64,000 nucleotides of DNA. It comes from Paraspadella gotoi (Eukaryota > Animalia > Chaetognatha). The DNA is taken from NCBI GenBank assembly GCA_051294375.1, contig JBJCIZ010000239.1:6491539-6555538 (forward strand). Reading direction: 5' to 3'. Below, piece after piece: positions 36,363-62,920 of the stretch. Under the pieces are notes generated by a model that was not told where the DNA came from, ran no database searches, and worked only from the letters and a program-made list of their open reading frames with translations. The translations under genes were made by a program, and so were the position numbers. Positions within the stretch are counted from its first letter, which is position 1, and every line of letters begins with the position of its first letter.

Positions 36363-39300
36363 TTGACACATTTTTGTCTGTGTAAATCAAATTCAATTTT
36401 AACGCTGATGAAGGCTCGCGAATAGAGCCGAAACATGTACGTTTTTTAAATGAAAATAAAATCGTTGTTGTAAACAATTCAAACGCTTTTTCTAAATGAT
36501 AAAAAACTATAATAAAAAACCCTAACCATAACTATCCAAAACCCTAAACCATCCCTAACCCTAAACAGTAAACACCCTGTAACCCGAGTTGGAGAATTTA
36601 AAATTAAGACTCTTTTTTTAATCCCTCAACTTGAATTTTTAAAACTAATATTTAATCCTAATCTGTTATTAAACATGAAACATGATCCAACCTGGACCAT
36701 TTATTCAATATTCATTAATTCTCCTTGACCACTCGTCATACATCAGACCGCGTGGCCAAATGGAGAAGGCGTCTGACTACGAATCAGGAGATTGAGGGTT
36801 CGAGTCCCTCCGCGGTTAACATTCAAAACTATTTAAACTATGCGAAATATTTTGTTTAATTTCTTCAGGCCAATCATATTATCTTTTATCCAAGCTTTTG
36901 CGTCCGAGCTCTTTGAGACTTGTTTACTCCTTTTGCTTTACCTTCAAAGCGATCTTCCCATCCAAGCTTGGGCGTCCAAGCTTTCTCTCTGGCTCAATTT
37001 TAAAACGATCTTCCCATTCAAGCTCTTGGCATCCAAGCTTTCTCTCTGCCTCACTTTTAAAGAGATCTTCGTGTCCAAGCTCTTGGCGTTAAAGCTCTCT
37101 CTCCAACTTATCTTCAAAGCAATCTTCCAATCCAAGCTCTTGGCATCCAAGCTTTCTCTCTGCCTCACTTTTAAAGCAATCTTCACATCCAAGCTCTTGG
37201 CGTCCAAGCTCTCTCTCCGCCTCACCTTTAATGCAATCTTCCCATCCAAGCTCTTGGCATCCAAGATTTTTCTCTGCCTTACCTTTTAAGCGATTATTCA
37301 ATCCAAGCTTTCTCTCTGCCTCACCTTCAATGCGATCATACCATCTTGCATTGCGATGCGATCTTCCCATCCAAGCTTTCTCTCTGCCTCACCTTCAAAG
37401 CAATCTTCCCATCCAAACTTTCTCTCTGCCTCACCTTCAAAGCGATCTTCCCATCCAAACTTTCTCTCTACCTCACCTTCAAAGCTATCTTCCCATCCAA
37501 ACTTTCTCTCTGCCTCACCTTCAAAGTGATCTTCCCATTCAAGCTTTCTCTCTGCCTCACCTTCAAAGCAATCTTCCCATCCAAGCTTTCTCTCAGCCTC
37601 ACCTTCAAAGTGATCTTCCCATCCAAACCAGTATATAAGGTGATAGACAGACGCGGGTCTATTACCCCCTCCTTCTCATTCACCTCCTCTTCATCCTCCT
37701 CCCAGGGATTCGGGGCCGCGTTCACGAGATTCAGTTCACCTTCCTCTATTCTCCTACTAGTTTCTCCCCTTTTTTTACTCTCATGATTGTCGCCGTATAG
37801 ATTTTCCTGCCGTCGTGACTTTACTTCCGGTTAGGATACCTTTTCAGAGCAAACTTTCTCTCTGCCTCACTTTCAAAGCGATCTTCCCATCCAAACTTTC
37901 TCTCTGCCTCACCTACAAAGCGATCTTCCCATCCAAGCTTTCTCTCTGCCTCATCTTCAAAGCGATCTTCCCATCGAAACTTTCTCTCTGCCTCACCTTC
38001 AAAGGGATCTTCCCATCCAAGCTTTCTCTCTGCCTCTCCTTCAAAGCGATCTTCCCATCCAAGCTTTCTCTCTGCCTCACCTTCAAAGCGATCTTCCCAT
38101 CCAAGCTCTTGGGGACGGGTTCAACTACTTCCGACACTAGGTCCGCGTTGGTCGCGTCGTCAGCTTCGATGTTCGGCAACTCTCTCCTTCTGTTTTGACA
38201 GCAGGACCAGTAGTGGGGAGTGCAAAAGAAACAAGGGTTTCTCTGAAGGAGGGGGGGAAGGAAGGGGGCGGGAGGTGGGTTGTGTAGTAAGGCGTAGTGA
38301 AAGTTACATACGAAAATTCTAAAAGTCATTTATGAACAACATACCCTCAGTGAACATTAATTTGTAAAAAAAATTAATTTTATGTTTTTTAATTTTCGCA
38401 GTAGGCTATATTTATATATAGTACTATCCTTATAAAATCAAAAAATTCAAAATAGGCTTTTCTTAATTTTGATTGCAGATTTGAATTCCTCGTCAAAAGT
38501 TGATAAAGAAAATATAAATCATTTTTAAAAATTCTTTCATTAAGTGGGTTAAAAATTAAAAAAACTATATTTAATATATAAAAAGTTAATTTTCAGCTTA
38601 AAATATAGCTTTTTCTAATTTTTGACTCACTTAATGAAGGAATTTTTCAAAAAGTTATATTTCTTTTTACCAACTTTTTATGACGAATCAAATCTGCAAA
38701 AAAATCTTAGAAAAAACTGTTTGAAATTTTAACATTTATGGTTTAGTACTAGTATAAATATGGCCTACTGCGTAAATTGTAAAATTATTAGAATTTTTTT
38801 ATTACAAATGTTTATTAGTATAGATTGGTTCGTTCCTCACTTTTAGAATTTAATTAAAGTTAAATTTAGAAATTTTACTACGCCTTATTGTGTAGTCAGG
38901 CATAGCAAAGTTCACCCCGCCTCTAAGCATGACACCTTCAGTCAAGATCCGGTGGCTCATTGAGTAAAGCCATCAGCTCATAACCACTAGGTACCGGGTT
39001 CAATCCCAACCCGGTACTTCCCTGCGGAAGTGTGAGGACGGCCGTAAGCGCCTTGGGGGCGTGGAAAACCCTCAAGCCTGGTTCCAAGCCCAGGACCCGT
39101 TCCATAGCTGCTAGAGGGGGTTAAAGAAGTTGCGGATAGTCATCTTCAGCCCACTTAGCGCCTTATCCATACTGGTGAGCCCATCCTGTTGAGCATATTC
39201 CAACCTTTTGATTCCAGGCCCATGGACGTGCTGAAGATTGCTCCCCTCCCTCCACTGGAAGCAGTGCAGGTGGGTTACAATCTGGGGGCATGTAGTCGGG

Positions 39301-41233
39301 CATAGCAAAGTTCACCCCGCCTCTCAAGCATGACACCTTAGGTTCGTGACCGTTTGGCTTTGAAATAAAGCAAAGTCAAGCTCATTGAACCTACTAGGTA
39401 TACGAGTTCAATCTCTAACCAGTAACGCCGTAAGACGTTGGGCGTGGAACTCAACTGGTTAACCAGGACTTCATACTCTCGAGGGGTTAAGTAAGTCATC
39501 TTAGCTAGCGCTATTCAAGGTAGTTGTCTTTTATATACTATAATTATATGCTAGTAAAGATTTACAATTTACTTCAGTGTACAGAAGAATATTTTTAGAC
39601 GATCTAGTAGAAGAGATTAGATGAGAGAGACCTTGTACCTAAACCATCTGGAAGAAGTTCTAATGAAATTGTTTATACAGTGTGTCCTATACTACTATAT
39701 GGCTGTGAGGTAAAAACTTTTTTGGGCTAGAGACATGAACAGAATTAATGTTGCTATTAATGATGGTATCATGAAAATTATTCGGATTCAAACCGATGGA
39801 AAGCATTAGAGAGCTTCGGACTTTAGTTTGGTTACTGTGATATTATTACATGTTTAACCAGCGTAAAAAGAACTTTATTTCCAAGATCTATAGTTCGAAA
39901 ATTTAGTTTCAAAAAAATAATCGCATTCTTTAATGATTGAAATATATTAATTGATAATTTGGACCTTTGTTGTCTGTGGTGGTGGTTTTCACGCAATCTT
40001 TAACTTTGTTTGTTTTTAGACTTAGCTTTTTTGATGCTCCTGTATGTAACTGAATCAACCTTGTTGAATCGAAATAAAACGCATTCTAAGCATGACACCT
40101 TCAGTCGTGACCGTGGCTCATTGAGTAAAGCCATCAGCTCATGACCACTAGGTACCGGGTTCAATCCCAACCAAGTGTGAGGACGGCCGTAAGCCGCCTT
40201 GGGGGGTGGAAAACCCTCAAGCCTGGTCCAAGCCCAGGATCCGTTCCATAGCTGCTCGAGGGGTTAAGAAGTTACGGATAGTCATCTTCAGCCCACTAAG
40301 CGCCTTATCCACAGTTGTAGCTTTAATGTTCGTTTATTATACATATAAAATTTTTTATTGCTAGTATTATTAAGATTATTTTATACAATATTTTAACTTT
40401 CAATTGATTGGATTGACGAGAGAGAGAGAAGAAGAAGAGAGAGAAGAGAGAGAGACACCTGCAGCCGGTTCCCGTAGACGGTGGGAAAGAAGTGCTCGAG
40501 ATAAACTGCGATAGCAAGAAGGCGATGAATTCGACAGAGAGAATATAAGACCGAGCCTGAGAAGAAATTTAATGTAATAAATATATAATAAAATACTTAA
40601 TTATATTTCAAATATCTAAATTAATAATTACTTGAAAAAAAATGTGTTGATGAACATTTTACAAATTTAAAAATAGAAAGAAAGAATAAGATTAATCTAT
40701 GAAACTTCGATCCAAAATTAAATTAATTTCAAAGTTAAAGATTAGGTTAAAGATTAAAGTTAGGGATTAGGTTGTGGATTGGCTTAAGAATTAAGATTGG
40801 GATTAAGTTTGTAATAGGGTTTAGGGATTAGAGTGAAGGATCAAAGTTAACATCAGGGATTGAATAAAAATTTGTTAAGAGGTTAGATCTTAGGGTTAAA
40901 ATAAAGTAAAACAGAAATGAGCGCGGTCTCGGTAAATAGTGCCGAAACGTGGGGTCCCTAACTGCGCCGTGAATGTCCAGTAGAGGGAAGTGCCGTCGTC
41001 TCGTTCGTCGGAAGCTCAACTTCTTCGTTGATGAGATCCCATCTGAGAGAAGGAAGAAGGAGAGGGTTGGTGGGGAGTGGGAGGGAGTGGGGAGTGGGGG
41101 AAGGGGAGAGATGGTGGGAGGAGGAGGAGGGGAGGGGAAAGGGAAGATGGGGAAGGGAAAGAATTTTAGGGAAAGGAGAGAGGAAAGGAGGAAGATGAGG
41201 AAGAGAAGAGAGAGGAAAGGAGAGAGGGTTGAT

Positions 41234-41600: not shown

Positions 41601-44600
41601 ACGTGACGCTTCGCTCGACGGCGGCGAGCCAGACGCAATGAGTGAGAGCGAGACAGATGGCGACTTGCGGTACGATGGCGAAGATGCAGGCAACGGCGAA
41701 AGGAATCAGCATCATGACGAACATGAGGATGGGTGTGGCCAGAGCAAAGAAGAAGGCGCTGATGATGCTGAAGACTGCGTTCGCGTTTTTTTGTGTGTGC
41801 GTATGTGTGTGTATTCGTGTTTATTTGTGTGGAGGTGGAGTAAGTTAAGAGGGATGGAGAGAAAGCGGGAGGAAAGGGACGGGCATTGCCTAAGTTCAAC
41901 CCGTTTCTGAGCATGACACTTTCAGTCGTGACCCGGCGGCTCATTGAGTAAAGCCATCAGCTCATGACCACTAGTTACCGGGTTCAATCCCAAACCGGGA
42001 AGCGTGAGAACGGCCGTAAGCCGCCTTGGGGGCGTGGAATTCCCAGCCCAGGACCCGTTCCATTGCTTCTAGAGGGTTTAAGGAAGTTGCGGTTAGTCTG
42101 CGGGTAGACTACCAGTCATCCTCGGCCCACTTAGCGCCTTATTCACATTAAGTTCAGGGGTCGTTCCAATGGTGGCGTAGGGTTGAAATCCTTACCCCAT
42201 ACAATTAAATCAAATCAAATCAACTAATCCAATCGATCAATCAAAATCGCATTAATACCTGCGGCGCTTTTCACGCTCTTGAAGAGAACCGAAACGACGA
42301 AGGATTGAGAAATGACGGTGAGAGAGTAAATCCAGAAAAGAATGAAGAAGACGCTCCTGCAGAGCGAATAAATTTTAAAAATATATATTATATACAAATG
42401 TATTAAAATATCTGTTCAATTCTTATCTATCTATTCTAAGCTAAATCTAAATTTATTATTCTTAATATTAATAGAAACAGTTGCTCTCCCCCTGACCATT
42501 CAATGTTGCCCACGATCCAATCCGATCCGACGACCATGATGAGCATTAGGCAACTTAGGATGAGCGCCTCGAAAGCATTGACGACGAGGTAGGACAACCA
42601 GAAGGCAGACTCCAACATGCCCATCACCCGCATCATGTCTTTGATCTGTAGGTTTGAAAAACATGGGAAGGCGTGGTTGAGGGTTGGTAGTTGGCAGGGA
42701 GGGATGGATCTGAAGAAAACTTAATTTCTGATATTATTGTAGTCGGGCATTGCCTAGGTTCACCCCGCCTATAAGCATGACTCTTTCAGTTGTGACCCGG
42801 TGGCTCATTGAGTAAAGCCATCAGCTCATGACCACTAGGTACCGGGTTCAATCCCAACCCGGTACCTACCTTGCGGGAAGAGTGAGGACGGCCGTAAGCC
42901 GCCTTGGGGGCGTGGCAAACCCTCAAGCCTGGTTCCAAGCCCAGGACCCGTTCCATGTCTGCTAGAGGGGGTTATAGAAGTTACGGATAGTCATCTTCAA
43001 CCCACTTATTATTATTATTACGCTCAAAAATTTTGTAAAGAGAGCGAATTTTGTCATTTACACATACAGAGGCAGCAAATAAATATTGTAACATATCCCA
43101 ATCCTTTCATCACCCCTCCCTAAAAATAAATTCGTTCGAAGAAAAAAAAAAAAACTAAAAAAAATAAATCTTCAAGGTTTTTGCGTGTGTAAAAATGTTG
43201 CGCAGTATGCATAGTACGCAATGCATACGAACCTAACCTTGCTCTCTTTCTCGCTGACCAACTGAACGACGAGAGAGACGTAAAATGGAATGAGACCCAA
43301 AGCCGCGGCCACGCCCAACAGATGATATTGGCCGGCGGCGCCGACTGCCGGCCGGCCATCCGGCGTGTAGGTTAGACGAGGGACGGGGAACATCTTGACG
43401 CTGTAGTTGAGACGGAGGCCGCTGATGACGGGCGGGTCGGAGCCTGGCGGGAGAGGGGGGAGGGAGAAGAAGGGAGGGAGAAGAAGGGAGGGAGAATAGG
43501 GGAGGGAGATGGTGGGAGGAAGGGAGGTGGTGGAGTGGGAATGTAAAGAACCCAAAGTTTTGATAAAACGTGATTTACATCTTTTTAAAAATGTTTAACC
43601 TTTTTTTTTTTGTAAGGTGGAAAAGACGTAAAGGGGATTTGTTTATATGTTTATATTTGATTATATATACATTCTATCCCGTGTTTAACAGCAACGTTTG
43701 TTAGAAATGATTTTAATTCAAACAAATTCTCTTCGTGAATATCTGAATTGTTTTTAGTCTCTACTTTAATGATTTTATATCTTTACTCTCATTGGTCGAA
43801 TTCTACCAATAGTAGTTAATGATTGAATTCTCAATAATTTTAAAGAAGATCTCTCTTCTCATTGGTCCATTAAATTTAGTCTTTGTATAAAAGAAAGGGC
43901 AACTTTTATTTTTTGAAGAGATTGCCCTGGGACCATAAGGTAATTGAATGATTTACTGAAATTATTAAATAGTGGAATTAGTATTAATAAATGGTTATAT
44001 TTTGTAGCTTTTGAGCTTCCACAGCTCTTCCAATGGCTCTTCCACAGCTCTTCCAATGGCTCTTCCACAGCTCTTTCAATGGCTCTACTGATTGTTATTT
44101 CGATTGTCCTTATAACTGTCAACTGAATTACAACTAACTTCAATTAATACTACTAATGGCGTTACGGTTATTGATGAGTCAACAATAGAGAAATTAATAT
44201 GAAGGATGCTCAATCGTGTTCCCAAGTCCGTAAGGAAATGTGCAATCTCTAACACCGTTAATGTTATCAGAGTAAATGTATTATGTTTTCCCTTCTCATT
44301 TTTCTTAACATTTTTAGTCGTTTATGATTAATCCCTTCTTTACAATATTAGGAACGCTTCACAATCTTAATTCACATTTCCGTCCTGGTCCAGTATCCTC
44401 CTTAAAACGACCACCCCCAACCACCCCCTCCCCAACCACCCACAACGTCCACCCTTAACCCACTTACCCCGGGTGAGTTCCTCCAAAATGGCGGATTCGA
44501 CGACCATCTGCAGCTGCGCATATCCGCTGAGGAGATAATCGTTCGGCGGGCAGTTTGAGGAGAGACCCTGGTTATTGATAGTGGTTATTGATAGTGGTTA

Positions 44601-47591
44601 ATGATTGGTGGATGGAATTGTGGATGGATCAGAGAATGGTTTTGTGGATGGATCATAGAATGGTTTTGTGGATGGATCAGAGAATGGTTTTGTGGATGGA
44701 TCAGAGAATGGTTTTGTGGATGGATCAGTGGTTAGATTAAAGAAACAAAATTCATTGCTCTTTAACTCTTAAACTGGAAATTCAAAATCGGTATCTAAAA
44801 TTTTTTTTTTTTCACTTTTTTTACCATCTTATTGAAAGAATTTTTTAAAGAAAGAATTATACTTTCTTATAAACTTTCTTATGAAATTGGTACAACCAAT
44901 ATAAAAATTATCCATTCATTTAATAAATAAGCTATCTTGCCCCTGACTTTGGACAGGCTTTGGTGGTTTAAGGCCTCCATCACTCTTACAAGATAATGAC
45001 ATAGCAGGTCCCTGCAAGCTTTCAATCAAGACTCTCTCACAGACTTGTTTATTCACTCCCAGAGTACCTGGCTTCCCTATCAATGAAGTGGAAAATATTT
45101 CAAAGAATGTTTCAATTGTATGAAAAGACCACTCCCTTAAGTATTAGATCGGGGAATACTTATTGTACTCCGCACTAGCATCAAAATACAAGGAGCTGAA
45201 TTTTATGAAATTGGTACAACCAATATAAAAATTATATCATTCCCCCCAAATTTTTTTCCCGCTCCCTACCTTCAAAAGCGGTTGGTAGCAATAACGCGTC
45301 TCCAAATAAGAAGATGCGATCGCTTGAAAATCCGCGCGTGGACCCTTTTTGGGGACCTGGAAGAGGGTGGACGGGGATCGGGAAGAGGGTTTGAGGAAGA
45401 TGAGGCGAGGAAGGGGGTGTTGATCGCCTGATCGAATCCCACCCCCCAAAAAAAAGACTGGTCACGTGACTTTATAAAAGTATGAAATAAATGCAGAGTG
45501 AAATGGAAAATCCTGATGGATCGTCTACTTTTTCCCGGGAAAACTTAACCAAACCGCGGCATTGAGTATGTCATGTCATGTCGCAATAACTCATTGGGCG
45601 TGTGAACGCGTTATCTCGTACTGAACGAGCGACAAAAAGGGAAATTTAATTTCCTGTAAACTATTTTTTTTTTTCATAATATTTTGTATTTATTTGCTTA
45701 ACGCTTTTCTTTTTTCTGAATTTTTTCGAATTTACCTGCAGAACCAAACCCGGGCCGGGCATTCGGATAGCGTATTTGGGTGTCCGGATCTTCATAGGAT
45801 CTGGAAGATATAAACAAAAATTGCGATTCTAAATTGAATCGAATGTCAGGGACGAATTTCCACGCCATCTCGTTCGTTTAATAAAGGAATTTTTGGTTGA
45901 GGCTGAATCACGAAGCTGACATTTTGACTCTATTTAGTATTTACCCTGTCGCCATTTATCACCACAAATATACGGACTTTTGCAGGTTGAATAATACATA
46001 AAACACTTCGGTCAGCTCCTCCCACGCAACTTTGTGTAATTTTGTGCAAGAGTTTCACAATAATACGAAACTGTACATTTACTTTCTGACTTTCATCTTT
46101 ATTCCAGCGACGCTCTATTTAGCTTTTTTTTAAAATGTATTATGTACTAGAAGTGCATTCATATGTTTTAAAGAAAGTAAAACATTTGTCATGTAAACTA
46201 TTCTCACTATACTAGCAAAGTAGATTTATAAAAATTAGAAAATAGAAAATTTCCTTCCAAGATTTTCGTTAAGAATAGTTTCGGGTTCCTAGCGTAGTGA
46301 CATTCTCTTTACAATGCGTATCACTATGCATATTACTATGAATAATATGCTTTTCTTAGTGACTGTTTTGATGTCGAGAAAATTGTTTCTTCAACTTCAT
46401 ACTCACGAGTCAATCGCAGTTGGAGTCCGAACCAAGAATGGAATCTACACATTTAAATGAGGGCACGATCTATAAAAAGGAGCGCCAGCGGATTCTTTAA
46501 AGCGCGAATCGTTGGCGCCGCCAATTCTTTCCCTTTACTGAATTTTCCGGCGCCGCAACCGTCACTGACGGCGTCAGAGCCCAAAAAACTCACATGGAAC
46601 GTAATCCGTGTCTTCGCCTTCGAAAACGATGGCGCCGGCAATGTTGAACTTGTAGATTCGTCGGTAGATCTCGACCAGCTTCTCGTTATTGGCCAGGATT
46701 TGACTCTCTGCCCTCTGAGGATTAATTGATCGATTTTTTGCTAAATTGATTCATAGAGTCGTTCAGATGTTTAATTAATTGTTAATATTGCTTGTTGTTT
46801 TTTTTTTTCAGGCAGGTAACGCCCGTTTTGGGTTGTGTTTGTCAACTTGTCAGAAGTGAAAAAAAAACTGCAATGATATCGATTAATTATTATATCAAAC
46901 ATTAAATCAATTAATAAATCTATCAATCAAACAAACAATCAATCAATCATTCATATTCCCTGATGAATTCCAAGATCTTTGAAAATTCTTCTTGTCATCC
47001 TTTTCACTCTCGTCGAAGATATTCCATTTTGGACGACAAAAAACTGTCGCGAGTCTCTGATGATAAATATGCAATACACAATATAAAATATTATTATATT
47101 ATTTTGTTATTATATAGTATTTTTTAAGGCGACAGACGGATAGACGGATAGTTTCTATTTGAGTACAATAAATAAAGAATTACAACTTTATTGCTGAGTC
47201 AGTATCGATGCTTCATCCGAGAAAGCCCCCCCCCTCGCGGCCCCCACCCCCCCCAAAAAAAAATAATAAAGATTCACTTTTGAGTGGTGAACTGGAAAGG
47301 CTGCTCGTTGTTGAGCGTGAACTTTTTGGGTTTGGCGTTGAAGAGTGGATAAACGGGAAAGTCGACTGCGTTCATCGCTTGATCAACTCCGTCCTTCTTG
47401 AAGATCTGTCCCAGAATGATGAAGAGCAGCACGAAGAGCAGTTCCGAGAAGGTGCGGAGAAAGCTGCGCACTTTGAGCAGAAAGTTGCGGCTCATCAACG
47501 CCCAGAATTGCGGCAGGAATCCGCCGCAACAGAAGATTTTCCTCGCCGTTTTCTTTTTGGGCGGAGGAAGGTTCGCCGGTTTGTCCGGCAT
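688..47591 (-). CDS. ABCA-subfamily ABC transporter, multi-exon gene; 3' part (rest of TMD2, NBD2) lies beyond the left edge; middle region triplicated in the assembly
   Basis: Phase-consistent GT-AG exons give an ABCA N-terminus ([15 protein letters not shown]), ECD1 motifs ([24 protein letters not shown]), [14 protein letters not shown], Walker [11 protein letters not shown]-loop [37 protein letters not shown]-domain FGLGY and [14 protein letters not shown]. Confidence 0.95.
1174..1334 (-). CDS. ABCA exon (TM8 region)
   Basis: [10 protein letters not shown]...[31 protein letters not shown]; TAG/GTTGGA. Confidence 0.85.
1476..2087. mobile_element. hAT-type MITE
   Basis: TIR TAAGGCGTAGT/ACTACGCCTTA, 8-bp TSD ATATACAT, imperfectly palindromic body. 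Confidence 0.85.
2455..2484 (-). CDS. ABCA 30-nt microexon
   Basis: Pyrimidine tract + CAG | [10 protein letters not shown] | GTGAGTAAGT, phase 0/0. Confidence 0.7.
2551..2715 (+). mobile_element. tRNA-Gly-like head (2551-2623) plus twister (family B)
   Basis: 73-nt tRNA-like unit with acceptor GCGGCCA/TGGTCGC-A, CGCCTCCCA and GGTTCAAGCC; the other arms are decayed. Confidence 0.65.
2628..2697 (+). ncRNA. Predicted twister ribozyme, P5-type (family B; assembly copies ~13470-13545 and ~26885-26960)
   Basis: P2 G(A)GG/CCC; GA-CGG; GACGCT; T2649|AA; GC; P3 CTGTA/TACAG; P4 CCTG/CAGG with A-G closure; loop TCCGAAGC; weak P5. Confidence 0.65.
3144..3309 (-). CDS. ABCA ECD2 exon
   Basis: [20 protein letters not shown]...FPMGLK; CAG/GTTTGA. 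Confidence 0.75.
3377..3717 (+). mobile_element. ~340-bp SINE-like insertion with 14-bp target-site duplication, nested in a related element
   Basis: TGTTGTGGTAGTAC at 3363-3376 and 3718-3731; internal TGGCGCCGGAGG / GGTTCACAACC boxes. Confidence 0.7.
3824..3898 (+). ncRNA. Degenerate twister-like motif (family D)
   Basis: P5 ACAAG/CTTGT; GA-TGR; GGTGTC; TAA; CCC; T2 AC/GT; P3 TTGTAG/CTACAG; loop TCTAAAGT; mismatched P2 and P4. Confidence 0.45.
4376..4836 (-). CDS. ABCA ECD2 exon with K/P/S/T-rich segment
   Basis: Open 461-nt frame [36 protein letters not shown]...[11 protein letters not shown]...NIFDDR; CAG/GTAAGG. Confidence 0.75.
5426..5668 (-). CDS. ABCA exon (TM7); donor uncertain
   Basis: [23 protein letters not shown]...KSFLFTLQ; TAG acceptor; donor either CAG|GAAAG or GAA|GTTGGG about 30 nt further. 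Confidence 0.8.
5950..6052 (-). CDS. ABCA exon (start of second half)
   Basis: [34 protein letters not shown]; CAG/GTACTT. Confidence 0.8.
6714..6816 (-). CDS. ABCA linker exon
   Basis: [33 protein letters not shown]; CAG/GTCCAG; phases match. Confidence 0.65.
7855..8041 (-). CDS. ABCA R1 domain exon
   Basis: [23 protein letters not shown]...[19 protein letters not shown]; CAG/GTGAGT. Confidence 0.93.
8022..8180. repeat. ~56-bp tandem repeat x3 spanning an ABCA splice acceptor
   Basis: GAGAGTGAAGATGATTTCCTGTGAATATYGGAGAGTGAGAT repeated. Confidence 0.88.
8516..8633 (-). CDS. ABCA R1 domain exon
   Basis: [39 protein letters not shown]; CAG/GTGAG. Confidence 0.92.
8695..9632. mobile_element. 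Foldback MITE with long TIRs and TA flanks (Tc1/mariner-like); assembly copies ~19519-20459 and ~33074-34024
   Basis: TA-CATGG(C)TGAC..ATTTTACAAGCGCCGGTA ... TACCGGCGCTTGTAAAATTGTCACCATG-TA; inverted similarity extends about 300 bp. Confidence 0.8.
9912..10027 (-). CDS. ABCA NBD1 H-loop exon (copies near 20740-20857 and 34320-34446)
   Basis: [39 protein letters not shown]; AAG/GTATGA. Confidence 0.93.
10171..22640. other. Second copy of the ABCA mid-gene block (probable assembly duplication)
   Basis: Collinear with 1634-10150 and 23581-35990; scattered indels break exons. Confidence 0.8.
23315..23533 (-). CDS. ABCA NBD1 signature/Walker B exon, cleanest copy (3' end truncated)
   Basis: [73 protein letters not shown]. 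Confidence 0.9.
34776..35029 (-). CDS. ABCA NBD1 signature/Walker B exon, indel-laden copy (another at ~21399-21650)
   Basis: Same sequence as the clean copy at 23315-23533, with frameshifts; ends ...KQGK|GTTGAA. Confidence 0.75.
35428..35511 (-). CDS. ABCA NBD1 exon, Q-loop (second, indel-bearing copy at ~22055-22141)
   Basis: [28 protein letters not shown]; CAG/GTGAG. Confidence 0.92.
35981..36223 (-). CDS. ABCA NBD1 exon, Walker A
   Basis: [38 protein letters not shown]; 5' part appears to carry indel errors. Confidence 0.92.
36746..36818 (+). tRNA. tRNA-Arg (anticodon ACG), intronic and antisense to ABCA
   Basis: 73-nt cloverleaf: acceptor GACCGCG/CGCGGTT, A box TGGCCAAATGG, anticodon arm TCTGA-CTACGAA-TCAGG, T arm GAGGG-TTCGAGT-CCCTC. 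Confidence 0.88.
36940..38108. repeat. 42-bp (distally 57-bp) minisatellite built from an ABCA exon end and its splice donor; unique insert at 37628-37850
   Basis: Minus-strand unit AGCTTGGATGGGAAGATCGCTTTGAAG|GTGAGGCAGAGAGAA = [14 protein letters not shown]. Confidence 0.92.
38081..38242 (-). CDS. ABCA exon (TMD1-NBD1 linker)
   Basis: [12 protein letters not shown]...[14 protein letters not shown]; CAG/GTGAGG; its 3' end seeds the 42-bp array. Confidence 0.85.
38288..38887. mobile_element. hAT-type MITE, same family as 1476-2087, opposite orientation
   Basis: Same TIRs; 8-bp TSD TTGTGTAG at 38280-38287 and 38888-38895. Confidence 0.88.
38891..39515 (+). mobile_element. tRNA-Met-derived, twister-bearing SINE/retrozyme-like element (family A): 400-bp monomer plus degraded second unit in tandem
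   Basis: TGTAGTCRGGCATAGCAAAG at 38891 and 39291; A box TGGCTCATTGAG, anticodon loop CTCATAA, B box GGTTCAATCC. Confidence 0.8.
39024..39100 (+). ncRNA. Predicted twister ribozyme (family A copy with two single-base homopolymer losses)
   Basis: Same elements as 42873-42951; predicted site T39045|A. Confidence 0.65.
39570..40080 (+). mobile_element. Degenerate 3' remnant of a non-LTR retrotransposon (LINE)
   Basis: Frameshifted peptide pieces [30 protein letters not shown]-like, typical of LINE ORF2 C-termini; ends near AATAAA. Confidence 0.55.
40085..40312 (+). mobile_element. Family A copy (5' truncated, P5 5' strand deleted)
   Basis: Close match to 38924-39170. Confidence 0.8.
40459..40556 (-). 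CDS. ABCA exon (TM6 end)
   Basis: ...[17 protein letters not shown], matching the ABCA YL..V.P..YG motif; CAG/GTGTCT. Confidence 0.85.
40963..41042 (-). CDS. ABCA exon
   Basis: [16 protein letters not shown]...; CAG/GTTAGG; phases match. Confidence 0.7.
41603..41774 (-). CDS. ABCA exon (TMD1)
   Basis: [18 protein letters not shown]...[11 protein letters not shown]...; CAG/GTGAGA. Confidence 0.85.
41879..42145 (+). mobile_element. Family A copy (internal deletion across P3/P4)
   Basis: Close match to 38897-39170. Confidence 0.8.
42259..42356 (-). CDS. ABCA exon (TMD1)
   Basis: [32 protein letters not shown]; CAG/GTATT. Confidence 0.9.
42497..42645 (-). CDS. ABCA exon (TMD1)
   Basis: [19 protein letters not shown]...; CAG/GTCAGG. 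Confidence 0.9.
42739..43020 (+). mobile_element. Family A copy ending in a (TTA)n tail
   Basis: Leader + tRNA head + twister, then AACCCAC-TTATTATTATTATTA; TATTATT immediately upstream of the element. Confidence 0.85.
42873..42951 (+). ncRNA. Predicted twister ribozyme, P5-type (family A, most intact copy)
   Basis: P5 GCGGG/CCCGT; P2 G(A)GT/GCC; GA-GGA; CGGCCG; T42895|AA; GC; P3 CTTGGGGG/CCCTCAAG; P4 CCTGG/CCAGG; loop TTCCAAGC. Confidence 0.8.
43238..43443 (-). CDS. ABCA exon (TM2)
   Basis: ...VKMFPVP...[21 protein letters not shown]; CAG/GTTAGG. Confidence 0.9.
44468..44567 (-). CDS. ABCA exon (ECD1)
   Basis: [33 protein letters not shown], the ABCA Y..SGF..LQ..V..AI motif; CAG/GTAAGT. 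Confidence 0.9.
44620..44728. repeat. 24-bp tandem repeat x4.5
   Basis: GTGGATGGATCAGAGAATGGTTTT. Confidence 0.85.
44881..45235. repeat. Interspersed repeat related to 4955-5330 and 62780-62920
   Basis: Shared TATCTTGCCCCTGAC, GGCTTCCCTATCAA and TAGTGC..AGTACAA motifs; ATGAAATTGGTACAACCAATATAAAAATTAT at both ends. Confidence 0.6.
45270..45356 (-). CDS. ABCA exon (ECD1)
   Basis: [29 protein letters not shown]; CAG/GTAGGG. Confidence 0.8.
45736..45800 (-). CDS. ABCA exon (ECD1)
   Basis: [21 protein letters not shown]; CAG/GTAAAT, phases match neighbours. Confidence 0.85.
46594..46714 (-). CDS. ABCA exon (ECD1)
   Basis: [40 protein letters not shown]; CAG/GTGAGT. Confidence 0.85.
46960..47056 (-). 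CDS. ABCA exon (ECD1); 3' boundary uncertain
   Basis: CAG acceptor; open frame [20 protein letters not shown]...; donor either internal AGA|GTGAAA or non-canonical CAG|GGAATA. Confidence 0.6.
47278..47591 (-). CDS. ABCA first coding exon
   Basis: [14 protein letters not shown]...[32 protein letters not shown]...; donor GTGAAT. Confidence 0.88.
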
Positions 47592-47899
47592 GATGATTTT
47601 TTTTTTCCCTTTTTTAAGTTACTTTATTTTTTGTAATCTAGTTTTTGTTTGTTTGTTTACAATTCGCTTTTATCTTTTAGTTTCTTTTTGATTCATACTT
47701 TCAACGATTTGTTTTTGTTTTTGTTTTTATATTTTCGTTAAGAATTTTTAAAAATCTTTTGATGTCGAAAAAAAAAATATTTGTTTAAACGTGGATTTTT
47801 CGCCCGCTGTCTTTGAGGGTAAAAAAAATTTAAGGTTGTGTCATTAATGGGCTCCTAAAGTAATATAAATATTACTCTAAACATTTGAATTTTTACTCC

Positions 47900-48190
47900 G
47901 CGCCTCCTCATGTGAAAAATAGTCGTGTGTGGCGATATATTCACACCGCCTCACATCCACCATCATTCAGCCAAATCCATTGGCTCAGAGGGGGAACACA
48001 CCATCCCAGGCGTAGAGTTCCATCCACAGTCCTAATGACTTCCCTCTGCGTTGGCAAAGCGAGACCGTCCTAGGGTAACCGCGCCAGTGACTGGAGGCGT
48101 CACTGAGGGTCGGAAGCCCCCAAAGCCAACAGTGAGATGCCCCATCCCAATGGGCATCACAGGCAACCCGGCTGTTGCCATACGTGCGAG
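47900..48190 (+). mobile_element. tRNA-derived, twister-bearing element (family C) between the MBOAT stop and ABCA start
   Basis: GC-rich island with A box TGGCTCAGAGG (47981) and B-box-like GAGTTCCATCC (48015) just before the twister; boundaries approximate. Confidence 0.6.
48050..48130 (+). ncRNA. Predicted twister ribozyme, P5-type permutation (family C)
   Basis: P5 GTTGGC/GCCAAC; P2 GCG/CGC; GA-CCG; P1 linker TCCTAGGG; T48076|AA; T2 GC; P3 CAGTGAC/GTCACTG; P4 GGG/CCC; loop TCGGAAGC. Confidence 0.8.
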
Positions 48191-48711
48191 CTTTTTCTTT
48201 ATGGTTTTATTTACGGAGCCGATGTTCTGAGACAAGCATGACCTGTTCTGAGACAAGCATGTTCTGAGACAAGCATGACCTCGCTTTACGATAGTTCATT
48301 CCTTTATTAGCAAGCAAGATGTTTTTGGCTTTATCACTCGGTGAAACTTTAGATGTATGTCACTATTGTCACTACTAATTATATGCGTAATAAATAAAAA
48401 AAAGTTTAATAGATACCACGTAAATTTTTTTGATATTTAACTATTTTTACGTATCCTTTACTTTTTCCACTCTTGCGCCTCCATTTTTATGGCTCAAGTC
48501 AAGGATTACGATGTGAAGAATTGAATTCGATTAAACTAATTGTTAGATTTTATTGAATAGAATGGACACAAAAATTAAAACACTAATTTCAAAATTGAAT
48601 TAATATTAAGTTCAGTATAATTCATCGGCGCTACCAAATACTCGGATACTTAATACGAATTAAAAAAGAAAAGAAAATTCATTGGACGGAATTTTAGGTC
48701 AATTGACCTTT

Positions 48712-53235: not shown

Positions 53236-54813
53236 GGCGAAGGCGAAGAAAGGCGAAGAAACTAAAAGTTCAGCCTGCAGGAATTGGCAAGAAAATAGTT
53301 GGGGGGGGGTAAAGTGAGGAGGTGGGAAAATAGATGATGACTAATCAGTGTCAGATCGACGGCAAAGATCAGGACTACAATCAAACAGTTTAGTGGCCGG
53401 TGAAATCTGACCCGCGCAGCTATGGACATGATAAAAAAAATATTTCTACCGATTCAACTGTTTTAATAAAATTTTATTATTTATAATTAAATTTTTACGA
53501 TAAAACTTTATCGTCGATTCCGTTTATTATTAAACTTTATAATTTTTTTAATAATTTTATTAATTGAATTCGCATTGCGTCAAAAGTATTTATCAAAAGT
53601 CAGGGACAAAAAAGCTTATCTATGGAATGAATAGAAAAAATTCACATTGATTGTAATAACTTGATAATCGTTTGTTTGAAAAATCTGTTCCCATCGAATT
53701 ATGATAAGAAAAATATGGTTAAAAGTTAAAGATAAAGTCGCTAAAATTGAGCCTAACTGATGCCTTATAAAACGTTACCTCTAATGCGTCTCCGGCGATA
53801 AATTAATCAAATTAATTAAATTAAACTTCGCCCCGAAAAAAACTCAGTCACGAACGAATAACGAAATTTGTTTTCTTTTCTCTCTTTTTTTTTCGTAGAT
53901 AAACGAATTTCGACGGTATCGACTAGAAAATTGGGTTCGCAACGAATTTAAGACCATTTTCTTTTTTTAGCGATTCGCTTTTTCGAGTTCGCGTGCTCAG
54001 CGGGATTGCGCAACGGTATAGAAGAGAGAAGCGACTATTGTGTATCGTGACAGAACATGGCAAAAGTTTACAGGGCATGGGAAAGGTTTGGTATTATTCT
54101 CTGCTTCGGTATTTTCGACGGACGAGAAAAAAAAAGATACGGAGAATCCGTCCGGTTTGACCTCTCGGTGACAATTTTGGTATAATTAAAAGGAGGAAAT
54201 ATTTGTTATGAAAAAAAAGGGGGAAAATGCTTTAAATTTAAATTTGATCGATTGATAAATAACTTTCGATTGGGATTTAAGGATTAGTTCAATGTTTTTT
54301 TTTTTTGTTTTTTTTATGATTCGCGCGAGAAATTTTGTTGTTGTATTGTGATAATAACTGAAAATTTATATTTTGTTATCTCGCGACCCCGCAGGCATAG
54401 AAAATACAATATATTTGGGTAGAGAGTTAGTTTAAAAAGTATATACAAATATGATAGACCTATTGAATTGAAAAGCGGTAAAAACTGCAATTTTTAAATT
54501 AGAAAGAGTTATCACAGGAATTGGATCAAGGGACCTCCAACACATGTTTTAGCCATTGTCGCCATAGAATAAATAAATACTTAAAATATTGGTCTGATTA
54601 AGAATAAGCAAAAATTTAATCCTAAATTTTATTGTGACTGGTAGTGGTAAATTTTAACAATTCTTGTCTTTACATAATAATTGGGGATGAGCATCGTTTC
54701 TAAACAACTCATTNNNNNNNNNNNNNNNNNNNNNNNNNNNNNNNNNNNNNNNNNNNNNNNNNNNNNNNNNNNNNNNNNNNNNNNNNNNNNNNNNNNNNNN
54801 NNNNNNNNNNNNN

Positions 54814-57800
54814 TTTCTTTGTTTCAAAAGTTTTTATCTCTTTGGAAAAGTCGCTTGCTGGTGTTTTAAACGTTTTTATCTCTTTTCACTTAGGAAATGT
54901 CGTCTGCCGATGTTTTTAACGTTTTTATCTATTTTTACATTGGAAAAGTCGTTTGTCGGTATTTTTTATCTTTTTTTACATTGGAAAAATCGTTTGCCGG
55001 TTTTTTTAAAGTTTTTATCTTTTTTTATATTGGAAAAGAAGTTTGCTAGTGTTTTTAACGTTTTTATCTCTTTTTACATAGGAAATGTGGTCTGCCGGTC
55101 TATTTAACGTTTTTATCTCTTTTTACATTGGAAAAGTCGTTTGTCGATGTTTTGAACCTTTTCATCTCTTTTTATATTGAAAAAGTTGTTTGACGAAGTT
55201 TTTACCGTTTTTATTTCTTTTTACATTGAAAATATCGTTTGCCGGTGTTTTCTACGTTTTTGTCTCTTTTTACATTTGAAAAAGCGATTTTCTTTGTTTC
55301 AAAAGTTTTCATCTCTTTTTATATTGGCAAAGTCGTTTTCTGGTGTTTTTAACGTTTTTATCTCTTTTTACATAGGAAATGTCGTCTGCCGGTGTATTTA
55401 ACGTTTTTATCTCTTTTTACATTGGAAAAGTCGTTTGTCGGTGTTTTTTATCTCTTTTTACATTGGAAAAATCGTTTTCCAGTGTTTTTGACTTTTTTAT
55501 CCATTTTTAAATTAAAAAAGTCGATTGTCGTTGTGAAAGTCGTTTGCCAAAGTTTTTAACGTTTTTATTTCTTTTTACATTGAAAAAGTTGTTTGCCGAT
55601 GTTTTCAACGTTTTTATCTCTCTTTACATTGGAAAAGTCGTTTGTCAACTTTTACCCTTTTTACATTGGAAATGTCGTTCTGCCGGTTTGTATTTAACGT
55701 TTTATCTTTTTACATTGGAATGTCTTCTGGCGGTGTATTTAACGTTTTTTATATCTTTTTTACATTGGAAAGTCGTTTGGCGATGTTTTAACCTTTTTAT
55801 CTCTTTTTATATTGAAAAAGTTTTGTTGCCGAAGTTTGTTTAACGTTTTGATTTTCTTTTTACATTGAATATTCGTTTTCGCCGGTGTTTTCTACGTTTT
55901 TATCTTTTTTTACGATGGGAAAAGCGTTTTCTAAAGTTTTTTATGTACTTTTTATATTTGAAAAGGTCGTTTGTCGTCTGTTTTTAACACATTTATTTCT
56001 TTTTTACATTTGGAATAAATCGTGTTTCTATTAATTTTTAACGTTTTTCATTTATTTCTTTACACAAGGAAAAGTCGGTTTTCTGTTTGTTTTTTAACGT
56101 TATTCTATTCTCTTTTTCTTTGAAAATATCGTTTTTTCCGGTTGTTTTTCACGTTTTATCTCTTTTACATTGGAAAAAAGCGTTTTTCTTTGTTTTAAAG
56201 TTTTTATCTTCCTTTACATTGAAGAAGTTGTTTTCTGGTGTTTTCAACCTTTTTTTATCCTTTTCTTACAATGGAAAAGACGTTGTGTTTCGGTGTTTTA
56301 CGTTTTTTATCTTTTTTGGTTTGGAAAAGTTCGTTTTCTGGTGTTTTTTAAAGTTTTCAGCTCCTTTACATAGGCAAAAGACAAAGGAAAAGTCCTTTTT
56401 CGGTGTTTTTAACGTTTTCTCTATTTTTACAAAAGAAAAGTCGCTTTTTTGTTTTAACGTTTTTAGCTTTTTTACGACGAATAGTCGTTTGACAGGTTTT
56501 TTAACGTTTTATTTCTTTTTTATTGGAAAAGTCGTTTGCCAAAGTGTTAGACGTTTTATCTCTATTTTTACATTGGAAAAAGCGTTTTGCTTTTTCTTTG
56601 TTTTTTAATAGTTATTATCTTTTTGGAAAAGTCGTTTTGCTTGTGTTTCTTTAACGTGTTTTATCTCTTTTTACATAGGAAATGTCGTCTGCCCGGAGTG
56701 TATTTAACGTTTTATTGTTTTTACATTAGAAAAGTCGTTTATCGGTATTTTTTATCTTTTTTTACATTGCGAAAAATCGTTTGGCCGGTTTTTTTTAAAG
56801 TTTTTTATCTCTTTTTTACATTGAAAAGTTGTTGTGTCGAGTTTTTAACCTCTTTTACCTCTTTTTATATTGCAAAATGTTTTCCAAGTTTTTAGTTTTT
56901 TTCTTTCATTATAAATTGTTTCACGTTTTTACTTTTAATGTTTTACATTGGAAAAAGTATTCTTTCTTTGTTTTTAAATTTGTTTATCTCTTTAACTTGG
57001 AAAAATCAGTTCCGTGTCTTTAAGTTCTAATTGTTCTCTTTTATAATGGAAAAGTCGTTTGCGGAATTTTTTAACGCATTTATTTTCTTTTACATTGGAA
57101 AAAATCCGTCTTTTCTGTCATTTTTAACGTTGTTTCATATCTTTTTACCAAACGGCAAGTCAGTTTTCTTGGTGTTTTAAACGTTTTTATCTCTTTGAGA
57201 GTGAGATGAAAGCTACAGATAATTAACAAGAGAAAAAGGCCGAAGATGAAGAAGAGTAATAAGAGAGAAATTGTTTGTTTTGATAAATTGTAAAAAAAAA
57301 CATTAAAATTTAATAACTCTCCTCACCCAGCGATGATGTTTGCAGAAGTTTTTAACGTTTTTTTTTTCTTTTTTCTTTGAAAAACGTTTTGAGGTGTTTT
57401 CTACGTTTTATCTCTTCTATACATTGAAAAAAGCGTTGTCTTTCATCTCGTTTGTACATTGAAGAAGTTGTTATCTTGGTGTTTTCAACCTTTTTATCCT
57501 TTTTACAATGGAAAAGGACGTTTTTTCGGTTTTTTTAACGGTTTTATTTCTTTTGACATTTGGAAAAAGTCGTTTTCTGGGTTTTTAACGTTTTTAGATC
57601 TTGTTTACATAGGCGAAAGAAAACGTGAGAATTCGTTTTTCGGCTGTTTTCTAACGTTTTTTAGCTCTTCTTTACATAGGAAAGAAAAGGAAAAGTCGGT
57701 TTTTCGGGATGTTTTTTAACGTTTTTTTCTCTTTTTACAAAGAAAGTCGTCTTTTTTTGATGTTTTTTAACGTTTTTAGCTTTTTTCTTACATTCAGTAA

Positions 57801-60800
57801 TAGTCGTTTGACGGGTTTCTTCAACGGCTTTATTGTCTTTTTTTATTGAAAAGTCGTTTGCCAAAGGTTTTAACGGTTTTTATCTCTTTTACATTGGAAA
57901 AAGCGTTTTTCGTTGTTTTTTTAAAGTTTTTATCTCTTTGGAAAAAGTCGTTTTGCTTGGTGTTTTTTAAAGTTTTATCTCTTTTTACATAGGGAAATGT
58001 CGTCTTGCCGCGTGTAATTTAACGTTTTTATCTCTTTTCTACTTTAGAAAAAGTCGTTTTATCGTTGTTTTTTATCTCTCTTTTAGCATTGGAAAAATCG
58101 TTTTCCGCGTTTTTTTAAAGTTTTTTATCTTTTTTTATTTGGAAAAGAAGTTTGCAAGCGTGTTTTTAAACTTTTATCTCTATGTTACATTGCGCAAATG
58201 TCGTCTGTCGGTGTATTTAACGTTTTTTTTTATCTTTTTTTTTACTTTTGGAAAGTCGTTTGGCGATGTTTTTTAACCTTTTTATTATTATTTTATATCT
58301 GAAAAGGTTGTTTGCCGAACTTTTTTAAAGTTTTTTATTTCTTTTTACATGAAAAATAAAAAAGTTTACATTGAAAATATCGTTTTGCGGTGGTTTTCTA
58401 CGTTTTTATCTCTTTTTTACATTGGAAAATCGTTTTTTCTTTGTTTTTAAAGTTTTTATCTCTTTTACATTGAGAAGTTGTTTTTTTTGGTGTTATTCAA
58501 CGTTTTTTATCCTTTTTTTACAATGGAAAAGATGTTTTTCACGTGTTTTTATTTTTTTTTATTTTCTTTTTCGACATTGCAAAAGTTTTTTTCCGGTGTT
58601 TTGTAGTTCACGTTTTTAGCTCACTTTTAATAGGCAAAGTCGTTTCTACAGATATCTGTTGTTAACGTTTTTATCTATTTTTACATGGTAAAGAAGAAGT
58701 GTTTGTCGGTGTTTTTAATCTTGTATTTTATTTTTATATTGCAAAAAAAACGTTGCCGAATTTTTTAACGTATTTATTTTCTTTTTACATTGAAAAATAT
58801 CGTTTGCCGGTATTTCTACCGTTTTTATCACTTTTACATTGGAAAAAGTGTTTTCTTTGGTTTTTTAAAAGTTTTTACTCTTTAGAAAAGTCGTTTGCTT
58901 AGTGTTTTTTAATGTTTTTATCTCTTTTTACATAAGAAATATCGGTCTTCCCGGTTTGTTATTTAACGTTTTTTATTTCTTTTTTACATTAAGAAAAAGA
59001 CGTTTATCGTTGTTTTTTATTCTCTTTTTACAATTGGAAAATATCGCTTTTGCGTGTTTTTTTAAAGTTTTTTATCTTTTTTATTATTGGAAAAGAAGTT
59101 TGCAAGTTGTTTATAAACTTTTTATCATCTTTTTACATTAGAAATGTTCGTCTGCCGCGCTCTGTATTTAACGTTTTTATCTCTTTTTACATTGGAAAAG
59201 TCGTTTGGCATGTTTTTAACCTTTTTATCTCTTTTTACATTGAAAAAGTGTGCCGAACGTTTTTAACGTTTTTTATCGTTTTATCGTTTGCCGGTGTTTT
59301 TCTTACGTTTTATTCTTTTTTTACGATGGAAAAAAGCGCGTTATTTATTGTTTCTAAAGTTTTATCTCTTTTTATATTTGAAAAGTCTTGTCGGTGTTTT
59401 GAACACATTTATTTCTTTTTACAATTGGAAAATCGTTTTCTGTTATTTTAACGTTTTTCATATCTTTTTACAAAGGAAAAGTCGTTTTCTAGTGTTTTTA
59501 ACTTTTTAATTTCTTTTTTCTTGAAAATATTGTTTGCCGGTGTTTTTCTACGTTTTTATCTCTTGTTGTACACTTGAAGAAGCGTTTTTCTTATGTTTTT
59601 AAAGCTTTTTATCTCTTTTTACATTGATGAAGTTGTTTTTGTGTTTTCAAACGTTTTTTTCCTTTTTTACAATGGAAAGGAGTTTTTTCGGTTTTATTGT
59701 TTTTATCTTCTTTGACATTGGAAAAGTCGTTTTCCGGTGTTTTTAACGGTTTTTAGATAATTTTACATAGGAAAAGTCGTTTGCCGATGATTTAACGTTT
59801 TTACCTCTTTTACATTGGCATCAAATTGTTTGTCGGTGTTTTTTAACCTTTTTATTTATTTTTATATGCCAAAAAATGTTGCCGAATTTCTTTAACGTTT
59901 TTATTTCTTTGTTGTTTTTTGTACATTGAAAAATATCGTTTGCGTATTTTCTACGTTTTATCTCCTTTTTATAATTGAAAAAGCGTTTTTCTTTTTTTTT
60001 TTAAAGTTTTTAATCTCTGTTAGAAAAGTAGCGTTTGAACTAGTGTATTTACGTTTTTATTTCTCTTTTTACATTAAGAAAAGTCGTTTAATCGGTATTT
60101 TTTATCTTTTTTTACATTTATTTCTTTTTACATTGAAAAAAGTTGGTTTGCCAGATGTTTTCAACGTTTTTATCTCTCTTTACATTGGAAAAGTCGTTTG
60201 TCGGGGTTTTTAAACATTTTGATTTCTTTTTATATTTTGAAAAAATTATTTCCCGTTTTTTAACGTTTTTATCTCTTTTGACATTGGAAAAGCGTTTTCA
60301 GTGTTTTTAACGTTTTTAGCTCTTTTACAGTGTTTTAACGTTTTTCATTTTTTTTACTAGGAAAAAGTCGTTTTACGTTTTGTTTTTAACGTTTTATCTT
60401 CATTCTACAAAATAAAAGTCGTTTTCTGGTTTTTCAAAGTTTTACTTTTTTTACATTGTAAAAGCTATGTTTTTGCCAAAGTTTTTAGCGTTTTATTTCT
60501 TTTTTATTTAAAAAGTCGTTTGCCGGTTGTTTTCAACGTTTATCTTTTTACATTGGAAAGTCGTCTACGGTGTTTTTAACTTTTTAATTTTTTTACAAAG
60601 GAAAGTCGTTTGTGTGTGTTTTTTAACTTTTTAATTAAAAATTCGTATTGTCGGTGTTTTTAACTTTTATATCTCTTTATAGATAGGAAAAGTCGTACGC
60701 CGATGTTTTTAACGTTTTTATCTTTTTATACATTGGAAAATTGTTTGGCCAGTGTTTTTAACATTTTAACTATTTTTACATAGGAAGACCTTGTTTGACC

Positions 60801-62280: not shown

Positions 62281-62284
62281 GTCT

Positions 62285-62920
62285 GATCTGTTTATCAGCA
62301 GATCCCGACTCTATAATTCACTTTGTCGGTCCGTCGGTCCGCCCCCTCAATATTGTCGGGCACACTCTTGTATCATGTCAGAACATCGAATTATGATTAA
62401 TTATGCAAAAAAAACGATGTCCGTCCGTCCGTCTGTCCGTCCGTCCGTCCGTCCGTCCGTCCCACCTTAGCAAAAAACTCCAATTACTCGTGATTGGATG
62501 GATGGATTGGTATGAAATTTTGTGTGTGGGTAGGAAACTGTGTGATTGAGATGGATATGCGGTTTCGAAGGAATCGTGCGAGTGGAAATTGGTTTAAATG
62601 GAAAAAACAAAAAAATATATTTCACTATTTGAACGCCAATTGCTCATGAGTGGATAAGGCAATTGACTTGAAATTTTGTTTGATGGTAGGACAGTGTGTG
62701 ATCGAGCTGGATATAAAGTTTCGATGGAATCGATAAAATTGATAAATTATTATTCCGATAACATTGTTTTATCACATGAAAGCTTGCAGGGACCTGCTAT
62801 GTAATTATCTTGTAAGAGTGATGGAGGCCTTAAACACCAAAGCCTGTCCAAAATCAGGGGCAAGATAGCTTATTTATTAAATGAATGGATAATTTTTATA
62901 TTGGTTGTACCAATTTCATG
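62285..62920 (+). mobile_element. Helentron/DINE-1-like non-autonomous element(s)
   Basis: (GTCC)n tract at 62419-62461 and repeated TGAAATTTTG; 62780-62920 is the reverse complement of 44881-45025. Confidence 0.5.

Follow-up and report, generated by a model that had tools for sequence, protein, structure and literature searches.

Plant long terminal repeat (LTR) retrozymes carry a ribozyme within the LTR and form circles, and solo LTRs can result (PMC4918200, PMC7761336). LTR retrozymes have so far been described only from plants, with hammerheads, and animal retrozymes are described as having no LTRs, no primer binding site (PBS), and no polypurine tract (PPT) (PMC7761336, PMC7229834). Twisters in retroelements have been reported for non-LTR elements (PMC8501958, PMC7761336, PMC6765202), and the role proposed so far for eukaryotic twisters is mainly at the 5' ends of such elements. 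Two further systems are relevant: the animal Helenus/TRIMp3 elements, which are short, have LTRs that contain tRNA-like A and B boxes, and show 4-bp target-site duplications, a primer site, dependence on Gypsy elements, and many solo LTRs (Kojima 2024, PMC10886601), and the CsRn1 clade of Ty3/gypsy elements, with 4-bp duplications, TGT...ATA or TGT...AAA ends, and a tRNA-Trp primer site (TGGTGAG/CCCCG) (PMC2582038). Here, we analyzed a stretch of 64,000 nucleotides from the chaetognath Paraspadella gotoi (contig JBJCIZ010000239.1; "the window"), in which a first-pass annotation had singled out a twister ribozyme in the gap between the genes MBOAT and ABCA. As a twister the candidate held up well, but its setting as a feature of this gap did not: the motif lies within a 255-bp repeat of high copy number (family A), most likely a solo LTR. 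By analogy with the plant elements, family A likely represents a twister-bearing LTR retrozyme in an animal, likely driven by RNA polymerase III (Pol III).

Contigs of four public sequencing runs were aligned to positions 47270 to 48700, and X6 and X9 were additionally compared. In the DNA run X2, summed contig depth was 152 to 182 in the flanks versus ∼1.7 to 1.9 million over 47942 to 48181, an inside-to-flank ratio of ∼10,000 that is not a copy number. Among the best 20 of 438 loose-end rows, 19 and 72 X2 contigs diverged at 47927-47928 on the left and 19, 166, and 61 contigs at 48181-48183 on the right. Sharp shared ends with unrelated sequence beyond them were found in X2, X5, X8, X6, and X9. 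The repeat delimited in this way (47928 to 48182, plus strand) begins with TGTGG and ends with CCATA, and it is flanked by two copies of CGTG (47924 to 47927 and 48183 to 48186). Its TGT...ATA ends and 4-bp duplication agree with the features of CsRn1-type LTRs. Moreover, 11 X2 contigs and one X10 contig matched through 48186 and then read GTGAGCCC, which consists of the LTR end, two bases, and TGGTGAGCCC and thus comes from family A copies other than the one at 47928 to 48182. In these copies, TGGTGAGCCC is a tRNA-Trp-type primer site, as judged by its match to the published CsRn1-clade word. Together, the sharp ends, the terminal letters, the duplication, and the primer site in other copies indicate that the element is most likely a solo LTR, and its identity as an LTR, with features of a CsRn1-type Ty3/gypsy system, is very probable. 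Family A resembles the CsRn1 elements PwRn1 and AgCR in ends, duplication length, and primer site but differs from them in having a twister; no ribozyme is mentioned in the available part of PMC2582038. No gag-pol, with the CHCC Gag signature expected for this clade, was seen with family A.

The copy at 47928 to 48182 differed from the family majority letter at 4 of 255 positions, none of them within the twister, which indicates a young insertion. An X2 flank contig continued without a break into the element, so the insertion is common to a second sample. No second family A copy was found within the window. In X10, a run labelled as another organism, a single contig (depth, 6; no flank coverage) matched 47992 to 48186 with 4 differences in 195 positions and extended into the primer site; such a contig could stem equally from contamination, from a close relative, or from transfer, and it was not taken as evidence of transfer.

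The twister motif (48050 to 48130, plus strand) is of type P5 with an extra P3 stem, and its predicted cut lies at 48076|48077. With pairs taken directly from the sequence, P5 (48050-55/48125-30) is Watson-Crick at 6/6 positions, and P3 (48085-91/48099-105) is paired at 7/7. The T1 pseudoknot (48065-67/48111-13) is CCG/CGG, 3/3, with an additional A48064-U48110 pair, and T2 (48083-84/48116-17) is GC/GC, 2/2. Stems P2 and P4 each have three G-C pairs and one mismatch (A48062-C48079 and A48106-C48121, respectively). P1 comprises two pairs capped by a CUAG loop within a palindromic segment (48068 to 48075) and is followed by U48076-A-A. The UAA cut-site loop, P2, P4, and the conserved core nucleotides are all present in P5 order, and every pair named in the first-pass annotation for P5, P3, and T1 was found, as were the core nucleotides. 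With a type-P5 descriptor purpose-built for this analysis, the strict version matched twice and the relaxed version three times in the window, compared to means of 0.03 and 0.07 in shuffled windows (100 shuffles each); the motif is thus not a chance match, and by its sequence it is a genuine type-P5 twister motif. It has the same element order, pseudoknots, and catalytic core as the type-P5 twister RF02684 in Rfam and the Perere-3 twisters of Schistosoma (PMC8501958). It differs from RF02684 in the additional 7-bp P3, a C-A replacing the first U-A of P2, and the palindromic P1. In Perere-3, which is a non-LTR element, the 5' end is occupied by the twister (PMC8501958), whereas the family A twister is internal to an LTR.

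Of the 122 positions upstream of the twister, 13 had variants of at least 5% in any of four runs, as did 2 of the 7 P3-loop positions and none of the remaining 74 twister positions (Fisher P, 0.002). At a threshold of 2%, 14 rows fell within the twister, most of which passed only in X6. Positions 48090 and 48100, the two sides of one P3 pair, varied in 12/12, 13/11, and 5/4 contigs, which fits compensatory change, co-occurrence on the same contigs not being demonstrated. Both A-C mismatches are the majority state of family A, and no variant of at least 5% was seen there. Among natural twisters tested, ∼94% were active, P1 was dispensable, and, of the mismatches in P2 and P4, only those at the loop-side P4 pair were not tolerated (PMC11662667); in the motif at 48050 to 48130 this pair is intact, and the P4 mismatch lies at the opposite end. 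The concern that the A-C mismatches might inactivate the ribozyme is therefore weakened, both by their prevalence in the family and by the tolerance of tested twisters, and we consider the family A twister to be probably active.

A second, separate repeat of ∼280 bp (family B) was present in five copies at 38.9 to 43.0 kb, with three short 5' fragments elsewhere. One unit (38891 to 39525, plus strand) has a two-LTR layout. Its 5' LTR (38891 to 39171; TGTAG...CCATA) carries tRNA-like boxes and a twister-like core with a one-base gap. This is followed by a 119-bp internal region (39172 to 39290) with the primer site TGGTGAGCCC at 39173 to 39182 and a short G run before the 3' LTR, and by a damaged 3' LTR (39291 to 39525), which aligned to the 5' LTR with 33/34 identities over the opening 34 bases and numerous small gaps thereafter. 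With two LTRs, a PBS, a short G run, and 119 bp between the LTRs, this family B unit may have the layout of a terminal-repeat retrotransposon in miniature (TRIM), which was not seen in family A. The tRNA-like boxes of family B LTRs are clear (TRGCY and GGTTC), and the twister-like core lies behind them. The copy at 42737 to 43008 (plus strand) holds an intact type-P5 twister with a short P2 (42873 to 42951; predicted cut, 42895|42896). Families A and B have no significant sequence in common and share their architecture only. The family B LTR copies between 38891 and 43008 sit within ABCA introns, antisense to ABCA.

A third type-P5 twister, on the minus strand with its U at 44970, has a short P2, AC/GU in T2, a 9-bp P5, and an Rfam score of 25.8 bits. 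It belongs to an AT-rich element (44879 to 45235; partial copy, 62777 to 62919), possibly a non-LTR retrozyme-like unit, that is bounded by 33-bp direct repeats and in which no tRNA-like boxes or primer site were noticed. All three unrelated repeats keep complementary T1 and T2 pairs while their letters differ. In other repeats, words at 2601, 13443, 23351, and 26855 resembled the L4 loop of twisters or the B box of tRNAs and failed both descriptors.

In all three descriptor-passing twisters, each from a different repeat, P1 is palindromic (CCUAGG, CGGCCG, and AGGCCU). None of these palindromes forms a hairpin by itself, and the computed duplex with a second copy has −9 to −11 kcal/mol. When two copies were modeled as a domain-swapped pair, the best rival fold was ahead by 5.0 instead of 10.1 kcal/mol per strand in family A and by 6.5 instead of 10.5 kcal/mol per strand in family B, so that the pair was still not the best fold in either family. 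Hammerheads with weak stems work as dimers (PMC7761336, PMC7229834). The palindromic P1 hints at cleavage as dimers; we treat this as a hypothesis and do not claim obligate dimer action, because P1 is reported to be dispensable in other twisters.

Upstream of the twister, the family A LTR contains a tRNA-type A-box-like word, TGGCTCAGAGG (47981 to 47991, plus strand), which fits the TRGCY of Helenus and not its YGG, and a B-box-like word with a GTTC core (48016 to 48025, plus strand), which has 4/5 letters of GGTTC. Runs of four T's are absent from the LTRs of both families. Pol III transcription of this copy would terminate at the first 5-T run past the element (48192 to 48196). None of the runs is recorded as RNA; X8 has the character of RNA (in it, the ABCA exon at 47278 is joined to the one that ends at 47056), X9 looks like the data of X8, and X5 and X6 look like cDNA. 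Depth in X6 increased ∼12-fold, from 1,425 at 47955-65 to 16,690 at 47977-87, and in X5 from 1,749 at 47955 to 29,703 at 47998, whereas it was flat across this region in X2 and increased just 2.4-fold in X8. One X6 contig bears adapter-like letters immediately before 47969, which we take to be a template-switch adapter. These observations weakly hint at a plus-strand RNA 5' end and Pol III start near 47969; since contigs cannot show starts, levels, or cleavage, the RNA-type runs provide hints only. Right-end-to-left-end joints, as expected for circles, were not among the joints listed.

The best reading, by analogy, is that family A is an animal LTR retrozyme with a twister, probably transcribed by Pol III and cut once per LTR. 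Pol III would start near 47969, directed by the tRNA-like boxes, and in a full element would read across both LTRs, which contain no T-run terminator. The twisters would then cut once in each LTR, yielding a unit-length RNA that a host ligase could seal into a circle. On this circle, tRNA-Trp would prime the reverse transcriptase of a CsRn1-type helper, whose integrase would insert the copy, as the plant retrozyme model proposes. The solo copy at 47928 to 48182 has a single ribozyme and would thus yield no more than an RNA of ∼230 nt that is cut into pieces of ∼108 and ∼120 nt. That the twister resides in a solo LTR whose retrotransposon is short, likely non-autonomous, and mobilized by a CsRn1-type helper, and that it likely cuts the element's own RNA, appears reasonably probable to us as a whole. 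Family A itself is probably short and non-coding, and for the route through circles, which follows the plant analogy, we have a slight preference. A wider proposal is doubtful: these repeats would represent an unrecognized class of animal Pol III LTR retrozymes, in which the ribozyme (a twister here, a hammerhead in the Helenus elements of gall wasps) replaces the T-run terminator and gives circular intermediates, with the twisters of the window acting as domain-swapped doubles, so that efficient cutting would require both LTRs in one RNA or a packaged RNA dimer, and solo-LTR transcripts staying mostly uncut.

Several observations weigh against the retrozyme reading. Cleavage, circles, and Pol III transcripts were not observed; the RNA-type contigs had no depth step at 48076, and no pile of RNA ends was seen among the contig end rows listed. 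In Rfam, the motif at 48050 to 48130 fell below the gathering score, with only a partial twister-P1 match (15.2 bits; E, 6.8); as the Rfam model is without the long P3, this weakens the Rfam label and not the fold. The low variation is not confined to the ribozyme, since the 52 bases after it likewise had no variant of at least 5% (0/52). Moreover, the nested twister fold lay 9.6 to 10.1 kcal/mol above its competitor (pseudoknot energy excluded), which pairs the cut-site strand with P4 and thereby traps the cut site; the minimum-energy fold retains P5 and P3 and loses P2 and P4, whose pair probabilities were at most 0.04 in three of four sequence contexts. If this competing fold prevailed, the twister would be a slow or dead passenger of an LTR element, and the predicted gap of ∼10 kcal/mol, the P2/P4 probabilities, the missing depth step, and the subthreshold Rfam score would all suit this explanation. 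Yet the folding model scores neither pseudoknots nor Mg2+, the two pseudoknots and every catalytic position are intact with almost no variation, and complementary T1 and T2 pairs are retained in different letters by three unrelated repeats; we regard a slow or dead twister as quite unlikely. In addition, the A and B boxes of family A are imperfect, one TTTT within the family B internal region could halt Pol III, only one of the five family B LTR copies (that at 42737) passed the descriptor, and no target duplication was readable flanking the two-LTR unit at 38891 to 39525.

The internal region of family A is visible for 30 letters only, which would allow family A to be part of a full coding element. 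The twister in a solo LTR of such a CsRn1-type Ty3/gypsy element would trim or tune the genomic RNA made by RNA polymerase II, with no circle, and the ends, duplication, and primer site suit autonomous CsRn1 elements equally. This explanation is unlikely, given that tRNA-like boxes lie within the LTR, that just 119 bp separate the LTRs in the sister family B, which shares the primer site, and that efficient cuts in both LTRs would destroy the terminal repeat needed by a linear template. The boxes, the shortness and high copy number of family A, and the known occurrence of twisters in non-LTR elements would also be compatible with a tRNA-derived short interspersed element (SINE) that carries a ribozyme, is comparable to the schistosome repeats combining a promoter with a hammerhead, and is mobilized by a non-LTR element. 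In family A, however, 53 bases precede the boxes at the left end, neither of the two sharp ends has an A-rich or repeat tail, and the 4-bp duplication, TGT...ATA ends, and primer site speak for an LTR; the primer-site junctions largely refute a SINE, which we consider highly improbable. Equally remote is a ribozyme adopted by the host that affects MBOAT and ABCA by cutting RNA, antisense or read-through, from the interval between them. The ABCA transcript contig ends 227 bp away from the element, an adjacent Pol III unit could influence a promoter, and the insertion is common to X2; but the motif is antisense to both genes and would not fold in their RNAs, the insertion is one of very many copies and young, with its 4/255 departures from the majority, and the flanks on both sides are uncovered in the RNA-type runs. 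The retrozyme-like LTR element thus remains the best reading.

Points shared with plant LTR retrozymes are a ribozyme in the LTR, a 4-bp duplication (family A), a primer site, a putative Ty3/gypsy helper, and probable solo LTRs, and the short non-coding internal part is matched in family B only. The plant elements have a type III hammerhead and a tRNA-Met primer site; here, a twister, a tRNA-Trp-type site, and tRNA-like boxes are found. Circles have been demonstrated for the plant retrozymes and are predicted here. Since an LTR retrozyme is defined by a hammerhead in each LTR and the ribozyme here is a twister, family A would work in a retrozyme-like manner without being a member by this feature. 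Next to the plant retrozymes, Helenus/TRIMp3 elements are the nearest published parallel. In contrast to Helenus/TRIMp3, the boxes of both families are followed by a twister and not by a T run, and those of family A are imperfect. The available text of PMC10886601 names no ribozyme in Helenus ("twister" occurs 0 times and "ribozyme" once, in a reference). In the available part of its supplement (DataS1), the tRNA-Trp-primed Helenus-2_SyJa-LTR and Helenus-2_SyUm-LTR begin with TGTGG and, by eye, have behind the tRNA-like boxes the core of a type III hammerhead whose loops are complementary; they have no 4-T run, which is present in the other 10/10 Helenus LTRs of the same supplement part. Four twister/primer words were absent from this supplement, and the few matches to shorter words were not twister-like by eye. 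The occurrence of a twister in family A suggests that published animal TRIM libraries conceal ribozymes.

Neither a twister in an LTR nor a dimeric twister appears in the titles and abstract openings of the literature searched, a scope that leaves out most subscription papers, the original twister paper, Repbase, and Dfam. If the reading of family A is true, an animal LTR with a tRNA primer site would show that the retrozyme strategy evolved a further time, using a different ribozyme and a different type of promoter. Family A is a high-copy, apparently transcribed family suited to direct tests of cleavage, circles, and the double-twister mechanism. A scan for loci combining a twister end, an LTR end, and the primer site returned 3 viral and 117 metagenome loci; none of these 120 passed the descriptor or matched family A or B by BLAST, and they are therefore chance matches.

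With respect to the neighboring genes, the distances and strands given in the first-pass annotation were reproduced: the motif lies 459 bp from the ABCA ATG (47591) and 669 bp from the MBOAT stop (48799), on the plus strand, with both genes on the minus strand. MBOAT was recognized by a match to Pfam PF03062 on two of five exon pieces and ABCA by an exon of its nucleotide-binding domain (9872 to 10030) that matches ABCA3/ABCA1; among the matches listed for this exon, nearly all named ones were animal ABCA5-like proteins, with one fungal exception. A Pfam search with whole open reading frames gave nothing useful, ABCA exon 1 yielded no informative result in the PDB, and no homologues were retrieved with an MBOAT exon. 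The ABCA transcript contig ends at 47701, and the RNA-type runs did not cover 47798 to 47893 or 48230 to 48565, the intergenic flanks being absent from X5 and X8. The element at 47928 to 48182 is likely a passenger between the two genes, and the finding at this locus is probably ordinary. The caution of the earlier annotation about effects on MBOAT and ABCA was well placed: such an effect is unsupported, as the element is antisense to both genes and outside their contigs.

Elsewhere in the window, three diverged copies of the ABCA-exon segment were found at ∼2000 to 34000, spaced 10.8 to 13.5 kb apart and with many small indels, which reflects either tandem duplication or redundant assembly from noisy long reads. 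A tRNA-Arg(ACG) gene (36746 to 36818, plus strand) is followed by 57-bp and 42-bp tandem arrays, and a large array of a 49-bp satellite at 54800 to 62300 adjoins an assembly gap.
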